Shown in pieces: positions 1 to 9,895 of a stretch of 9,895 bases of DNA. Numbering within the stretch: the stretch's first letter is position 1; every line of letters begins with the position of its first letter. The stretch lies in the NCBI RefSeq assembly GCF_003334355.1, contig NZ_QOWP01000057.1; one strand, 5' to 3'. The notes under the pieces were generated by a model that was given only the letters and a program-made list of their open reading frames with translations, made no database searches and was not told where the DNA came from. The stretch comes from Escherichia coli. Lineage in GTDB: Bacteria; Pseudomonadota; Gammaproteobacteria; Enterobacterales; Enterobacteriaceae. A program made the translations under genes and the position numbers.

Positions 1-116
1 TGAATCTGAGGCAGCACCTGGCACGGCTGGGACGGAAGTCGCTGTCGTTCTCAAAATCGGTGGAGCTGCATGACAAAGTCATCGGGCATTATCTGAACAT
101 AAAACACTATCAATAA
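1..116 (+). CDS. insB: IS1 transposase InsB, C-terminal portion (5' end outside window)
   Basis: Frame starting at 3 translates to [37 protein letters not shown] with stop TAA at 114-116, which is the recalled InsB C-terminus. No start codon in window. Confidence 0.8.
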
Positions 117-131
117 GTTGGAGTCATTACC
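1..131 (+). mobile_element. IS1 insertion sequence, right-end fragment (element continues upstream of window start)
   Basis: Positions 1-131 match, from memory of the IS1 sequence, the InsB C-terminal coding region followed by the terminal inverted repeat (...CACTATCAATAAGTTGGAGTCATTACC ending at 131). Flanking DNA starts at 132. Confidence 0.85.
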
Positions 132-698
132 CAACTAATCTTATCTATATATCATGTGATATGTTCTGTAACAAGTAAAATCAACATAAAAAATTCAGCA
201 AAATTTAATATTCGCTCAACTAGCCGTCTCACATATGACATTATTAGTCAACTCCATTTGCCACAAAATGGCTATTTCATGGAACGCAGTAATTTCTTAG
301 TGGCTATTATCATGCTAATTCTTAGGTCCCTAGCGATTATTCCTGGCTGGTTCGTCAGTTTAGACCATGAGATTGTTACATTCCTTTTTATCATGGAGAT
401 ATGGGGGAAAGCAGGAAACGATTTTTTCATCTGCATCCGTTGGTAAATATGGCTTTGGTCACTACGACTTAAACCTTCCTCAATCACAGCTGTTCGCCGG
501 GCGATACGGCAAACAAACTAAGTGAGGCATCACCCTGAAAACACCAACATCAACAAGCCTCTCCAGATCGGCTTCAGGAGTGACCAGTTACAAGCCACAA
601 ACCAGGAAACATATTTCATGATGAGAATTATGCTAAGCCTGATGGCGGGTAAACACTTATTTTCACCAAGCTCACTGAGTTAGCTTACAAAGCTTCCC

Positions 699-717
699 TT
701 ATTTAGACTCTAAATAA
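699..717. repeat. Perfect 9-bp inverted repeat TTATTTAGA-C-TCTAAATAA, followed by a second IR AGATATT-N6-AATATCT at ~733-752
   Basis: Read directly from sequence. Lies in the AT-rich nanC-upstream regulatory region; candidate protein-binding palindrome. Confidence 0.4.
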
Positions 718-878
718 ATTATTTATAAAACAGATATTTAAAAGAATATCTTTAGTTTTTGAAGACCACCGCAAGTGTTCGTCTGGCTTCACATGGCATC
801 TTCCTCTTAGAAAAAGATCGACATATTTTGTGACACGAATTGCAAATCTGGTTTTGTTGTATGGATTGCGTGATTTTT

Positions 879-906
879 GATCTGGTATAACAGGTATAAA
901 GGTGCA
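879..906. promoter_or_regulatory. NanR-type operator: GGTATA-ACA-GGTATA-AA-GGTGCA repeats immediately preceded by a GATC Dam site
   Basis: GATC at 879-882; GGTATA at 884-889 and 893-898; degenerate third repeat GGTGCA at 901-906. Tandem GGTATA hexamers are the recognised NanR binding motif, and such a site is known in the fimB-nanC intergenic region. Confidence 0.6.
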
Positions 907-1321: not shown

Positions 1322-2038
1322 ATGAAAAAGGCTAAAATACTTTCTGGCGTATTATTACTGTGCTTTTCGTCACCATTAATTTCTCAGGCTGCGACACTGG
1401 ACGTACGTGGTGGATATCGTAGCGGAAGCCATGCCTATGAGACTCGACTCAAAGTCAGTGAGGGATGGCAAAATGGATGGTGGGCAAGCATGGAAAGTAA
1501 TACCTGGAATACCATTCATGATAATAAAAAGGAAAATGCCGCACTCAATGATGTTCAGGTTGAAGTTAATTACGCGATTAAACTTGATGATCAATGGACG
1601 GTGCGCCCGGGAATGTTAACGCATTTTAGCAGCAACGGCACCCGCTACGGACCCTACGTAAAACTGTCCTGGGACGCGACAAAAGATCTTAATTTTGGCA
1701 TTCGCTATCGTTACGACTGGAAAGCTTACCGACAACAAGACTTATCCGGTGATATGTCTCGTGATAACGTTCATCGTTGGGATGGATATGTCACTTACCA
1801 TATTAATAGTGATTTCACCTTCGCATGGCAAACGACGCTATACAGCAAACAGAACGATTATCGCTATGCAAACCATAAGAAATGGGCGACGGAAAATGCA
1901 TTTGTTCTACAATACCATATGACGCCCGATATTACGCCATACATAGAATATGACTACCTTGACCGTCAGGGTGTTTACAACGGCAGAGATAATTTATCGG
2001 AAAACAGTTATCGCATTGGTGTGTCATTTAAACTGTAG
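1322..2038 (+). CDS. nanC: N-acetylneuraminic acid outer-membrane channel NanC (KdgM-family porin), 238 aa
   Basis: ORF-track frame 1313-2038. Chosen start is the ATG at 1322 (MKKAKILSGVLLLCFSSPLISQA..., signal peptide ending AQA-A); the track start at 1313 is an upstream GTG. Sequence recognised as E. coli NanC (YjhA). Stop TAG 2036-2038. Confidence 0.93.
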   Translation: MKKAKILSGVLLLCFSSPLISQAATLDVRGGYRSGSHAYETRLKVSEGWQNGWWASMESNTWNTIHDNKKENAALNDVQVEVNYAIKLDDQWTVRPGMLTHFSSNGTRYGPYVKLSWDATKDLNFGIRYRYDWKAYRQQDLSGDMSRDNVHRWDGYVTYHINSDFTFAWQTTLYSKQNDYRYANHKKWATENAFVLQYHMTPDITPYIEYDYLDRQGVYNGRDNLSENSYRIGVSFKL

Positions 2039-5169: not shown

Positions 5170-5472
5170 ATGGAATTATTAAATACTTATGATGATAAAG
5201 AAACAGCTGAAATATTTTTTGAAAGAATAGAAGGAGAGAAAAGATTAGCAAGTGAACGAGATGCTACGGAAACAGTCTATAACCTCTTCGGGCAACCAAC
5301 CTGGAAAAATTTATATCTTCTTGATATGTTTAACCTAAAAGAATTACAAGGGATTATAGAGTGTAGAAAAAATGGACAGTCTTTCGACCAGGAACGACAC
5401 CGGGAAATAATAAAAATGCTTGAATATGCAGCAAAATCGTTTGACTTAATTATTCCTGCACATTGGCGATAA
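5170..5472 (+). CDS. Hypothetical small protein (100 aa), function unknown
   Basis: ORF-track 5170-5472. AGGAAAA 5 nt upstream of the ATG; followed by a strong hairpin terminator. Sequence (MELLNTYDDKETAEIFFERIEGEKRLASERDATETVYNLFGQPTWKNLYLLD...) not recognised as any family I know. Confidence 0.5.
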   Translation: MELLNTYDDKETAEIFFERIEGEKRLASERDATETVYNLFGQPTWKNLYLLDMFNLKELQGIIECRKNGQSFDQERHREIIKMLEYAAKSFDLIIPAHWR

Positions 5473-5474
5473 TA

Positions 5475-5507
5475 TCTGCTCCATATCTCACAGAGATATG
5501 GAGCAGA
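5475..5507. terminator. Bidirectional intrinsic terminator between convergent genes
   Basis: 15-bp perfect stem (5475-5489 pairs with 5493-5507; TCTGCTCCATATCTC / GAGATATGGAGCAGA) with 3-nt loop ACA. Flanked by A/T-rich tracts on both sides, between the 5170-5472 ORF stop and the 5519 stop of the - strand gene. Confidence 0.7.
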
Positions 5508-5518
5508 ATCATATTTAT

Positions 5519-8500
5519 TTACTCGCTAACCATCTTACTGAATAATTTCTCCAGATACAATGAGCCAGTATCCTCAATAAAAAGCACATTTCTGGCTTCC
5601 AGATTCTCTTTTGAATCAGGTACGTTTACTAAGTCAACATAACAAGTTTCAGAAACAATAAATGCACTTAATGATAAGTTATCATCCGATAATTTATGTT
5701 CAAGATTCTTGATTTCTTTATATAATCCGAACTTTGGATCATCAAGATTAAGATTGCGGATGCCTTTTGGATCAATAAGACTTAACCATTGTTTACCACT
5801 TTTATCATCGACTAACCACAATAAGAAATCCGGATAAAAATTACCCGCAGTAGCAAAGCCCAGGCCTCTATTTTTAGAATCCGCATTTCTTAGCAGATAT
5901 AAACTTTTATCACCAATAATTTTCTGCCCTTTTGTCGAATCAACAAAAGACTGAAGATCATGGACAAAAGTAATCTCACTTGATGCACCCAGTGTTGCCG
6001 GTCGCATTTTTAGCGGTATGTTGGCATTTTTTTCAATCGAAAGAAGTGGATAATAGAGATGTTTATCAAAGGTAATAGCAACCATCCCGGATGCACTCCA
6101 GGATTTTGCTTTACCGATTTCGCCGTCGATGACCAATTGTTGTAATTGTTCCAGCCGACTGGCATATGCCAACCCATCATCAGTTTCTTCGATCTCGAAA
6201 TGGTACATTTTGATCATACCAGGATCATCTTCTTTCACCTGCGTGACTTCATAAAACTGACCTTCATAAGCATTTTTCAATGTGTTGTAAAAGCGATCAG
6301 TATAATCAGTCAGCAGACGAAGCATAATATCTTCCTGCTTAGCAATATCTGCATATTGCTTAATCTCAAGCTCTGAAGCTGGAATCAAAAGGGTATACCA
6401 ACTATTTCCGATCTTTGTCTTACCGGTACAAAAGTCGATCAAACGTTGTTTATCCACACGTAAATTTGACCAGCCGCGTTGTAGTTTATAATTCTGAATG
6501 GCGAGATAAAGCCGATCAAAATCAAACGCACTAATGATTTTATAATCTAACTTCGCTTCATTACGCACGTTAACCGGAGTATTGTCCCCTTTTCTGCTGG
6601 TATCAATCGACTCAAGTTTCGGGTATAGGTCCAGCTTAATATGCGGCTGCTTAATTTTCCCCTGAAAATCAGCAGGAACTTCATACAATTCGGGAAAATA
6701 GACACGTTTAAAGCCGAGTCTTTGATTATCTTTATAACCATCTTTAAGCTTAAGTGTTTTAAGCCTGGTTGCTGGCATATTTGGCCGAGTTTCAAAATTC
6801 AGCTCAAGGATCTCGTCACTTGGCGTAATCCCTTCATCTTCCAGGTATTGTTTAAAGGTTGCCATGTAATCGGCACGTACACCGAATACATTCAGTGTCT
6901 CTAATTTTTCCAGATGCAACCCTTTCGGACGCTCACCGGGTGTACTGCGTTTCAAAGAATAATTGCGACCTTTAAGGCGAACGCCACGACCAAATAACTG
7001 AATGATCTGTGAACCTTCTCCACGGCCCATATTGAGCAATCCCATCGTTGAGACGCGCCAACTGCTCCAGCCTTCAGTAAATTTTCGCGAGCCGATCAAA
7101 ATATGTAGTTGCGAGTCTTTGTCATTTAACGTATGAAAGAGTGACTTCGCAAAATCATCTCTCTGATAATCAAATGTCGTATCCTCTTCACACATTTTGT
7201 AAAGAGACGGTGCATCACCAATATTGATAAGACCAAACGGTTCGGCCTCACCAACCTGTAATGCCAGTTCACCTTTACTGCCTATTAAATTCAGAACTCG
7301 CAGTCTCTGACCTGAGTGAGTGGTGTTAAACAAACGAGAAAGAATATCTGCGTAGATATCTTCCGGGCCGTTCATTAGTGCGGTAAAGCGATTTTCAAAA
7401 ATGTTACGCTCTTTGGTATCAAGAATTCGCGCTTTATTTTCAATGAGATCTTTAATCCACGATTTTGCCTGCGATTCATGATTTAAAAACCATGCTAAAA
7501 AACGCAGTACTGCGTGAATGTCTGAATCTTCACCACTTACGGTGTTACCGACAAAAACCCATAGCGGTTTTTCGATATTAAATTCATTTAATTTTTCTTT
7601 ATTCTTATTGAATAAATATTGTTGCTGATAAAAGCTGAGCAAACACGCGGTAAAATACTCATACCGACGCTCATCTTTTTTATCCTCTTCAGGATTAAGG
7701 TTAAGAATCAGTGATTCTTTACCATAACCATCCTCATAGAAGAATTTATAGGAGTAATCGAACAGAATCGATTTCCCATAGACTTCTCGTGTCGCCTGAA
7801 TACGCGCATCACGTTGTTCTTCGCTGGTTAATGCTATTTGCGCTAACTGTTCTTCGCTCAGTTTACCTAAGGCAGTTGTTTCAAAAAGCAGCTTTGCTTT
7901 TTTCTTCTGAATTTCTGTTTCAACTGCCTCAACATTATTGCCACCGGCCACTGCCTGGCCAAAAGTTGCTGAATATTCAAACGCAAATCCGTCACGCGTT
8001 AATTTGTCACGACGGCGCATCCAGGCACCAGCAGCACTTCCTGTGCCTTTATGCCCTTCATCAATCAGGACCAGATTGTTGCCTTCAAATGCCTCAACGG
8101 CAACAGTTTTGTCACCCATTTCATCGGCAAGTTTATTGATATCAATAACTTCAATCGTGCCTTTAAATGGCGCGGATTTACTCTTATCGAATAACTGGTA
8201 TTGGGTAAATCCTGAGTTTTCCAGTTCATCTAAATGTTGCTTCGATAGGCGTTCATCCGGCGTAAGCAGGATGATTTTATCCGGGTAATGATGGCTATTA
8301 CCGTTCTGGAAATAATGTAAATATTGCAAAATATTGACATGTAATAGCAGTGTCTTACCAGAACCAGTAGCGTTCCAGTATGCCAGTTTATTCAAATCAT
8401 CCAGAACGTATGATTTGAACTGATTAGCCCGGTCTTTTGCTGTTTTATCATTTTCAGCATTGTATGCTGCCAGCTCGTTATTTAGCCCATCGAGTAATTG

Positions 8501-8899
8501 CTGTTTACGGTTGAAGTACCAGTCCAGGTAGATCTCGGTAAACAGAAGCGACAAGTACTGAAAATATTTCATGTTCAGCACTGTGTCTTCTTTACGATTA
8601 CGGTGCTCGGTTATCTGCTGCCAGTGCTGCACGATATTGAGATCGTAACGACGCAGTTCATCGAGATCGATAAGATCGACCTCGAATAAATAGTTACTCA
8701 GCTCATGGAAGAATAAGCTTTGGCCATCTTCATGGATGCCTTCAAAGCGATCCTCGCCTAACCGATTCTTCAAACCTTGCAATGTGCCATCTTTAAAAAA
8801 ATGGAACATAAAGCGGTTTAAAACCAACTGCTTATGAAAGCTCAGCTTGCTGTTAGTCTCTTTTTTAACTGCTTTACCGGTGGTCGGTTTTTTAGCCAT
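5519..8899 (-). CDS. SF2 helicase with C-terminal PD-(D/E)xK nuclease motif; Type III restriction Res-like subunit (1126 aa)
   Basis: Intact ORF. Strong RBS GGAGGAGG 7 nt upstream of the ATG at 8899. Walker A ATGSGKT (aa 177-183; 8351-8371), motif II LIDEGH (aa 278-283; 8051-8062), motif VI QLFGRGVR (aa 634-641; 6977-7000), and C-terminal YPDFLLWLV...LIDPK (aa 1022-1045; 5765-5833) fitting PD-x(n)-(D/E)xK. Helicase-then-nuclease order matches Type III Res. Confidence 0.8.
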   Translation of the reverse strand: MAKKPTTGKAVKKETNSKLSFHKQLVLNRFMFHFFKDGTLQGLKNRLGEDRFEGIHEDGQSLFFHELSNYLFEVDLIDLDELRRYDLNIVQHWQQITEHRNRKEDTVLNMKYFQYLSLLFTEIYLDWYFNRKQQLLDGLNNELAAYNAENDKTAKDRANQFKSYVLDDLNKLAYWNATGSGKTLLLHVNILQYLHYFQNGNSHHYPDKIILLTPDERLSKQHLDELENSGFTQYQLFDKSKSAPFKGTIEVIDINKLADEMGDKTVAVEAFEGNNLVLIDEGHKGTGSAAGAWMRRRDKLTRDGFAFEYSATFGQAVAGGNNVEAVETEIQKKKAKLLFETTALGKLSEEQLAQIALTSEEQRDARIQATREVYGKSILFDYSYKFFYEDGYGKESLILNLNPEEDKKDERRYEYFTACLLSFYQQQYLFNKNKEKLNEFNIEKPLWVFVGNTVSGEDSDIHAVLRFLAWFLNHESQAKSWIKDLIENKARILDTKERNIFENRFTALMNGPEDIYADILSRLFNTTHSGQRLRVLNLIGSKGELALQVGEAEPFGLINIGDAPSLYKMCEEDTTFDYQRDDFAKSLFHTLNDKDSQLHILIGSRKFTEGWSSWRVSTMGLLNMGRGEGSQIIQLFGRGVRLKGRNYSLKRSTPGERPKGLHLEKLETLNVFGVRADYMATFKQYLEDEGITPSDEILELNFETRPNMPATRLKTLKLKDGYKDNQRLGFKRVYFPELYEVPADFQGKIKQPHIKLDLYPKLESIDTSRKGDNTPVNVRNEAKLDYKIISAFDFDRLYLAIQNYKLQRGWSNLRVDKQRLIDFCTGKTKIGNSWYTLLIPASELEIKQYADIAKQEDIMLRLLTDYTDRFYNTLKNAYEGQFYEVTQVKEDDPGMIKMYHFEIEETDDGLAYASRLEQLQQLVIDGEIGKAKSWSASGMVAITFDKHLYYPLLSIEKNANIPLKMRPATLGASSEITFVHDLQSFVDSTKGQKIIGDKSLYLLRNADSKNRGLGFATAGNFYPDFLLWLVDDKSGKQWLSLIDPKGIRNLNLDDPKFGLYKEIKNLEHKLSDDNLSLSAFIVSETCYVDLVNVPDSKENLEARNVLFIEDTGSLYLEKLFSKMVSE

Positions 8900-8901
8900 T
8901 C

Positions 8902-9873
8902 TTAAACCTCCTCCGCAAACATCAGGTTCAAGAATTCAGGTTCGATCTGGCGGATTTTCAGGCTACGAACAATCTCGCCGTCTTCTTCATCAACGGTAAA
9001 GGCGGTAGGTAAGTTATGATCGCCATTGATATAGATAACGTCGAACGTATTTTCTTTTGCATATAAATCGAATCTGTTGGCATATTTATTCAATTCTTCA
9101 TAGCCGATCTTGTCGCAATCGCGCCACAGAATAAGGGTACGCTCGCCAGTTGGTAGCGTTCCTTCAACACGCACATAGCCACGTTCGATATTGGATTCGA
9201 TGGATTTCACATGTAAGCCAATGAGATAGTTGAAAGTTTCAACTAAATCGATGTTCTTACGCTCAGTAGCACCTGCGGAATCCGTTGTAACATCCATTTC
9301 GTAGTTAAATGGTTTTTTGAAATTATCAGTATTGAGTAGTGAGCCTTTGCTTTCTGTTTCAAGCATATAGTTAAGAACATAATCCTCTCGAATTTCTTTA
9401 AGATCGTCGAAAAGATCCTTTGTTGTTTCAGTACGTTTCAGTGCTATATTGTTAAGAGTATCCTCAAAACTCTCAATTTTAATATATTTTATTAATGTCT
9501 GCTCAACTGGATTACAGCTTAGTGCTTTTCCATACTTCCAGTCAGTTGTAAAAATAGCTTTTTTTACTCTAGGCAAGGTAACAGAATAAAAATATTCACC
9601 TTGTTCGACCAAGCTAAATTTTCGAAAACCATTATCATCCCTATTCATATCTACCACTGCATGCCCTGTAGTACCAGAGCCAGCAAAATAGTCTAAGAAA
9701 TGAGCATACTTCGAATTACTAAGCGACTCTAAACATTCCTTAACCGCATAAATACTTTTTGGAAAAGAAAAATTAATCTGAGTCACGTTAAACAAACTAT
9801 TTAATAGTTCCGAACCATTGAACCGCCCCGGGTTTCCTGGAGAGTGTTTTATCTGTGAACTCAGGCTGCCAGA
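8902..9873 (-). CDS. Type III Mod-like N6/N4 DNA methyltransferase, C-terminal portion (AdoMet motif I plus C-terminal domain); reading frame interrupted upstream
   Basis: Open frame 9873..8902 contains FSFPKS...LDYFAGSGTTGHAV (motif I at 9667-9693) followed by RKFSLVEQGEYF, the pattern seen in beta-class and Type III Mod methyltransferases. The stop TAA overlaps the res RBS with only a 2-nt gap to the res ATG. In-frame stop at 9874-9876; a different frame is open 9800-9895. The catalytic DPPY-type motif is not in the window. Confidence 0.65.
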   Translation of the reverse strand, partial: SGSLSSQIKHSPGNPGRFNGSELLNSLFNVTQINFSFPKSIYAVKECLESLSNSKYAHFLDYFAGSGTTGHAVVDMNRDDNGFRKFSLVEQGEYFYSVTLPRVKKAIFTTDWKYGKALSCNPVEQTLIKYIKIESFEDTLNNIALKRTETTKDLFDDLKEIREDYVLNYMLETESKGSLLNTDNFKKPFNYEMDVTTDSAGATERKNIDLVETFNYLIGLHVKSIESNIERGYVRVEGTLPTGERTLILWRDCDKIGYEELNKYANRFDLYAKENTFDVIYINGDHNLPTAFTVDEEDGEIVRSLKIRQIEPEFLNLMFAEEV

Positions 9874-9895
9874 TCATCGTTTCCGATGGAAGCAT

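Follow-up and report, generated by a model that had tools for sequence, protein, structure and literature searches.

Positions 699-752 of the window (the whole 9,895-nucleotide stretch of DNA analysed) are probably the AT-rich apex of a NagC–IHF–NagC loop in the fimB–nanC control region of Escherichia coli, and the inverted repeats located there would be by-products of the underlying sequence. These palindromes are best read as a lineage-specific accident inside an already known element.

The window derives from the E. coli chromosome; over positions 132-1321 it matches strain C9 with 100% identity and most of 5107 complete E. coli genomes with 95-96% identity. Alignment to K-12 MG1655 places the stretch in the fimB–nanC intergenic region, on the nanC side and read toward nanC, as the initial annotation had correctly proposed. 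The intergenic region analysed is 1190 bp long. The features referred to below are as follows.

1-131, plus strand: right end of IS1, with the junction at 131/132
610-632, minus strand: NagC operator O_NC2, published as "fimB2" (CATAATTCTCATCATGAAATATG), with the top NagC matrix score in the window and π = 0.019
685-765: hypervariable AT-rich segment of conserved length, where diversity in the fimB–nanC intergenic region is highest
699-707/709-717: inverted repeat IR1, TTATTTAGA-C-TCTAAATAA, a perfect 9-nt repeat (100% complementary) with 1 nt between the arms
711-717/719-725: third repeat, TAAATAA-A-TTATTTA, a perfect 7-nt repeat with one arm in common with IR1
728-740, plus strand: IHF-type core AAACAGATATTTA (AAACAG-ATAT-TTA), with one mismatch to WATCAR-N4-TTR
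732-738/745-751: inverted repeat IR2, AGATATT-N6-AATATCT, a perfect 7-nt repeat with a 6-nt spacer
822-844, minus strand: NagC operator O_NC1, published as "fimB1" (TGCAATTCGTGTCACAAAATATG), with the second NagC matrix score in the window
884-906: NanR operator O_NR, with GGTATA at 884-889 and 893-898 plus a degenerate GGTGCA; π = 0.002
1322-2038, plus strand: nanC, of the only target operon (nanCMS) that remains to the control region in this lineage

The conserved operators flank the repeats. The fimB2 and fimB1 operators are given in FITBAR Table 1, compiled from El Qaidi and Plumbridge 2008 and a personal communication of J. Plumbridge (PMC3098098), and their sequences are the reverse complements of window positions 610-632 and 822-844, respectively. 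A NagC matrix built from eight non-fim NagC sites ranked O_NC2 and O_NC1 first and second in the whole window, with 18.7 and 9.0 bits, respectively. Measured between their centres (621 and 833), the operators are separated by 212 bp; the midpoint is 727, and the repeats therefore occupy the centre of the NagC–NagC loop. Checked against the published NagC sites, the palindromes lie between the operators and do not coincide with them. The distance from the palindromes to the GGTATA motifs of O_NR was measured as 133-185 bp, in agreement with an earlier estimate of about 130-185 bp. GATC sequences adjoin O_NC1 (816-819) and O_NR (879-882), and both are also present in K-12.

A metagenome scan anchored on a 20-mer of O_NC1 yielded 90 usable E. 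coli contigs; outside E. coli, its only other matches were three unrelated chance ones and an E. coli-like contig from a Bacteroides MAG. The spacing between O_NC2 and O_NC1 was 212 bp in 83 of 89 contigs, 211 bp in four and 213 bp in two, and was thus kept despite very high substitution diversity between the operators. Diversity in O_NC1 was about zero (π), but this operator had served as the search anchor.

The IHF-type core at 728-740 sits at the midpoint between the operators. Its single mismatch to the consensus is an A for T at position 3, and the equivalent K-12 sequence, AAACAAATAGTTA, likewise carries one mismatch. Directly 5' of the core is the tract TAAATAAATTATTTATA (711-727), which is 100% A/T. 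The 1.19-kb intergenic region contains four matches to WATCAR-N4-TTR with at most one mismatch, three of them at 713-740, and the match at 728-740 keeps the C-A-R and TTR bases. Such matches are not enriched window-wide (37 vs 29.7 expected), and the consensus is degenerate. Across the 90 contigs, positions 729-732, 739, 740 and 742 were invariant and positions 728 (89/90), 738 (86/90) and 741 nearly so; position 733 was A or G in 72 contigs, and the N positions 735-737 were polymorphic. Retention of the consensus-fixed bases alongside variable N positions involves few positions (p of about 0.05 by estimate) and lends weak support.

The title of Sohanpal et al. 2007 states that IHF is needed, and the study reportedly describes, for K-12, IHF binding midway between O_NC1 and O_NC2 and aiding NagC occupancy of both. 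Binding of IHF at 728-740 of the window is suggested by this report together with the sequence evidence. The main text of an IHF ChIP-seq paper does not mention the fimB–nanC locus. Conservation and spacing together are as predicted for a phased loop whose apex is bent by IHF, and it is likely that IHF, not a palindrome-reading regulator, binds here. IHF sites are asymmetric, so the symmetry of the palindromes is not what IHF would read. The initial annotation had named a nucleoid protein among the candidate binders; that candidacy gains from the IHF-type core and A/T tract at 711-740, which lie at the operator midpoint and may form an IHF site, and the symmetry on which it was based is irrelevant to IHF.

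In the proposed mechanism, NagC dimers would bind O_NC2 (610-632) and O_NC1 (822-844), whose separation of 212 bp corresponds to about 20 helical turns. IHF would bind at the midpoint through the core AAACAR-N4-TTA (728-740) and the 5' A/T tract (711-727), and its sharp bend would promote cooperative NagC binding at both operators. The loop complex, together with NanR at 884-906, would then control the divergent fimB and nanCMS promoters. The palindromes would be incidental to a low-complexity A/T sequence that repeats TTATTTA/TAAATAA in alternating orientation, with the substitutions A701, T737 and T747 perfecting the repeats in one haplotype. In genomes with the IS1 fim deletion, the loop would serve only nanCMS. 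Two observations run counter to this account: the outer half-sites of IR1 (699-700, 702-705, 711-714 and 716-718) are nearly invariant, which also fits a dimeric protein site, and diversity in the segment is far above the synonymous level, which a constrained IHF site and a neutral spacer do not predict.

The repeats themselves are real features of the sequence. IR1 was located exactly where it had been reported (699-717); IR2, reported at about 733-752, exists but was placed one base off and spans 732-751. Among 1000 dinucleotide-shuffled versions of the 1190-bp intergenic region, 6.8% contained a perfect repeat with arms of at least 9 nt and a loop of at most 10 nt; the figure was 3.5% when the 80%-AT stretch 680-760 was shuffled and 41% for the whole 9.9-kb window, in which four such repeats are actually present. 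Chance would yield about 1.3 repeats with 7-nt arms per intergenic region, and for this reason IR2 alone is unremarkable. The view that these palindromes are unlikely by chance is therefore weakly borne out for IR1, which is only mildly unusual, and fails for IR2, which is at chance level. Three distinct repeats in a stretch of 53 bp amount to a modest local excess. The heptamer TTATTTA/TAAATAA is present three times in alternating orientation, and the third repeat forms the A/T-rich tract directly 5' of the IHF-type core, with columns mostly conserved across the 90 contigs. The left arm of IR2 overlaps the IHF-type core and its right arm lies inside a hypervariable block (743-749).

The dyad symmetry is not kept across strains. 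The 90 contigs contain 47 alleles of 690-760, and many alleles were likewise found among sixteen complete genomes spanning the identity range. IR2 is complementary at 7/7 positions in four of the 90 contigs, with a modal complementarity of 4/7, and IR1 at 9/9 in 12 and at 8/9 or less elsewhere. Two versions of perfect IR1 exist: TTATTTAGA/TCTAAATAA (A701/T715) in five contigs and TTGTTTAGA/TCTAAACAA (G701/C715) in seven. The bases that perfect the repeats in the window are rare (A701, 5/90; T737, 5/90; T747, 11/90); G701 is found in 84 of the 90 contigs, and IR1 is perfect in this window because of the rare A at 701. K-12 differs from the window by eight substitutions in 699-748, is identical over 749-908, and has complementarities of 7/9 (IR1) and 4/7 (IR2). 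The 96-bp segment 680-775 was matched exactly in 102 of 5068 complete genomes and at 95-99% in 219, with the rest at 81-94%, so that the haplotype is present in about 321 of 5068 complete genomes (approximately 6%).

Column shuffles of the 90 contigs revealed no covariation in IR2 or the third repeat, whose complementarity was at or below the shuffle mean. For IR1, the observed complementarity was reached in 9.8% of shuffles when unique haplotypes were used and in 0.3% when all sequences were used; this marginal excess of complementary states is driven by the pair 701/715. Nucleotide diversity is 0.104 (π) for IR1 vs 0.019 for O_NC2. The initial annotation's proposal of a dimeric regulator binding at the palindromes is thus not supported: both repeats are degraded in K-12, perfect repeats are few (IR2 4/90, IR1 12/90) and the haplotype has a frequency of about 6%; conservation across genomes is poor, the very outcome it had set against its own proposal. 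K-12 (4,540,076-4,540,079, equivalent to window 747-750) and some other haplotypes have an extra GATC (AAGATCT) in the hypervariable block that the window does not have.

Diversity is concentrated at the loop apex. It reaches π = 0.14 for 699-752 and 0.23 (0.229) for 732-751, against an intergenic mean of 0.038 and 0.0265 at the fourfold sites of nanC in the same contigs. Within 699-752, 31 of 54 positions are polymorphic. Sites with at least three alleles, each seen at least twice, number eight in these 54 bp and eight in the other 1109 bp, and parsimony steps per site are 2.6-4.1 in the segment vs 0.4 in the flanks. The apex thus combines four to nine times the neighbouring synonymous diversity with a fixed length and an invariant IHF-type core. 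AT richness was rejected as the cause, since π does not exceed 0.03 in other bins of 77-80% AT. Other workers have employed the nanCMS–fimB spacer as a diverse, host-informative marker. Independent IS insertions in or near the segment were seen in strain HCP4S3_I4 (at about 735) and strain 702/18 (at about 680, window-equivalent); one of the inserted elements is of the IS3 family and the other is ISKpn26. Bent AT-rich DNA may be a preferred target for IS insertion.

A mutational hotspot, template switching at quasi-palindromes and diversifying selection on loop geometry are possible sources of this diversity, and a general drive toward palindromy is disfavoured by the covariation test. As a tentative extension that we consider doubtful, segment 685-765 would be a hypervariable regulatory cassette in which either a hotspot at IHF-bent AT-rich DNA or diversifying selection repeatedly alters the bases around the invariant IHF core, with the length preserved. 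If so, these changes would tune loop stability and with it, lineage by lineage, the set-points of fimB-dependent phase switching of type 1 fimbriae and of expression of the nanC sialic-acid porin, and the perfect palindromes of the IS1 fim-deletion lineage would be one extreme allele.

Other explanations attribute a function to the palindromes or to the AT-rich DNA around them. IR1 (TTNTTTA-N5-TAAANAA) could regulate nanC, fimB or both, either as the operator of another dimeric transcription factor or as a third, weak site of the NagC/Mlc type. The nearly invariant half-site columns around a variable centre (706, 708-710), the two different perfect versions, the marginal excess of complementarity and the TT/AA at ±5/6, as in NagC sites, all point in this direction. 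The G701·T715 mismatch, however, is found in 84 of 90 contigs; C715 occurs only on the G701 background, which has a frequency of 93%, and may reflect a single event; and the invariant A/T columns are equally explained by the A/T tract of an IHF site. The near-invariant T/A half-sites fit with or without a dimeric protein and neither prove nor exclude one. A NagC site at IR1 in particular was rejected: IR1 scores 5.46 bits at best (698-720) and -6.36 bits in the symmetric register, where the majority G701 allele scores -10.8, whereas all ten validated NagC sites score 9.2-21.9 bits (leave-one-out). By-eye comparison of the repeats with the SlyA, Fur, Lrp, Nac and CRP consensus sequences gave no convincing match. 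Taken together, an operator at IR1 appears unlikely.

The 80%-AT segment might instead be a nucleation site for H-NS or another nucleoid protein, or a curvature element, silencing nanC and fimB, with the palindromes irrelevant. The AT fraction is 0.80 over 680-760 vs 0.64 for the intergenic region, positions 711-720 match the H-NS motif TCGATAAATT at 8/10 bases, and H-NS represses fimB at promoter-proximal sites. Against this, matches to the H-NS motif occur at chance frequency window-wide (24 vs 21.3 expected) and mapped H-NS binding is limited to the vicinity of the fimB promoter. Silencing by H-NS would also leave the invariant AAACA…TTA pattern and its midpoint position unexplained, and we regard it as improbable.

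Template-switch mutagenesis driven by the quasi-palindromes would account both for the hypervariability and for the perfected palindromes of one lineage. The diversity peak coincides with the repeats, as does the clustering of multi-allelic sites (8 in 54 bp vs 8 in 1109 bp), and all three rare haplotype-defining alleles (A701, T737 and T747) raise complementarity. This last observation is biased, the repeats having been defined from the window's own haplotype. Across haplotypes, neither IR2 nor the third repeat is more complementary than its column-shuffled versions, the arms of IR2 typically pair at 4/7 positions, and the hottest block (743-749) shifts to many states and not toward the complement, all of which makes this mechanism quite improbable as the explanation of the segment.

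It is highly improbable that the repeats act as hairpins in RNA or DNA, whether in a terminator, a small RNA or a cruciform: the single-strand folds of IR1 and IR2 have z-scores of -4.5 and -2.4, respectively, and G701·T715 would be a G·U pair in plus-strand RNA, but this reading is effectively refuted by stems worth just -3.3 and -3.1 kcal/mol, by the lack of terminator-like sites in 132-1330 and of Rfam matches overlapping the repeats at an E-value of 1 or less, and by pairing that is not kept across contigs.

The preferred reading, an IHF-bent apex between two NagC operators, has close counterparts among known systems. The IHF-assisted NagC loop of K-12 (Sohanpal et al. 2004, 2007) is at the same locus, with base-identical O_NC1, O_NC2 and O_NR, the same 212-bp spacing and an IHF-type core at the same position. 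The window differs from K-12 in that the eight substitutions in 699-748 perfect IR1 and IR2 and remove the GATC at 747-750, and in that fimB has been lost to IS1, leaving nanCMS as the sole target. IR1 resembles the 23-bp NagC/Mlc operators (nagE, nagB, chbB, glmU, manX and galP, among others) as an AT-rich near-palindrome with TT/AA at ±5/6, but is without their C/G-containing inner positions and is variable at 701. In the nagE–nagBACD loop, NagC binds its two operators cooperatively by looping the DNA, which cAMP-CRP bends between the operators. The fimB–nanC loop would be similar in its paired NagC operators and in a DNA-bending protein at the apex; it differs in using IHF and not CRP, in its size (212 bp vs about 90 bp) and in acting at long range, over more than 470 bp, on fimB. 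NagC requires two sites and looping (PMC5401889). Quasi-palindromes that are template-switch mutation hotspots, such as those of thyA and lacZ reporters (Ripley and Lovett), share with the window locus the imperfect repeats and clustered substitutions, and one haplotype here looks "corrected"; unlike them, the locus has no population-wide shift to complementarity.

The perfect-palindrome haplotype and the IS1 fim deletion seem to be markers of a single lineage. In strains C9, M217 and NCCP12480, IS1 is bordered on its other side by a 3' remnant of a fimbrial gene adjoining gntP, and fimB and the whole fim operon are therefore deleted. The SlyA site OSA1 (TTAGCATGATAA), published at -179 to -168 relative to the fimB start, is the minus strand of window 307-318. 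With its position as the anchor, the fimB transcription start was placed near window 139 on the minus strand (window position x corresponding to about -(x-139) in fimB coordinates), and the 131/132 junction would be approximately 8 bp downstream of this start. The IS1–fimB junction was found in 324 of 5426 complete E. coli genomes (approximately 6%), and all five IS1-junction genomes sampled have the haplotype with perfect IR1 and IR2, with A or T at 721. Since fimB is gone, only nanCMS is left to respond in this lineage; nanM and nanS come after nanC.

About 150 bp upstream of the nanC start codon, positions 1157-1178 contain a perfect 8-nt inverted repeat, GTGAAAAG / CTTTTCAC-like (TGTGAAAAGAGAATTTTCACA), with TGTGA/TCACA ends and a weak match to the NagC matrix (7.7 bits); its 11-bp spacing means that it is not a canonical CRP site. 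Beyond nanS are fragments of an HNH endonuclease and of a phosphorothioate-dependent restriction enzyme, followed on the minus strand (5519-9818) by a Type III restriction–modification-like pair comprising a 1126-aa res-type helicase (PADLOC REase_III, E = 0) and then a methyltransferase gene. The latter ends early, at 9818, compared with a 3105-bp gene in strain NCCP12480; positions 9819-9895 depart from this otherwise near-identical strain, begin TGAACCGCCCCGGG… and look like an IS3-family terminal repeat interrupting the methyltransferase gene. A perfect 15-nt inverted repeat with a 3-nt loop at 5475-5507, between the convergent ORFs 5170-5472 (plus strand) and 5519-8899 (minus strand), is probably a bidirectional terminator.

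Through the fimB–nanC control region, type 1 fimbriation and the NanC porin are coupled to sialic acid and GlcNAc, which signal host inflammation. The present analysis clarifies that the conserved operators here are the flanking NagC sites and not the palindromes, and that the element between them resembles the IHF bend site of K-12. Local hypervariability is the only part that might repay more work: should looping be modulated by the variable bases, strain differences in fimbrial switching would have a simple origin.
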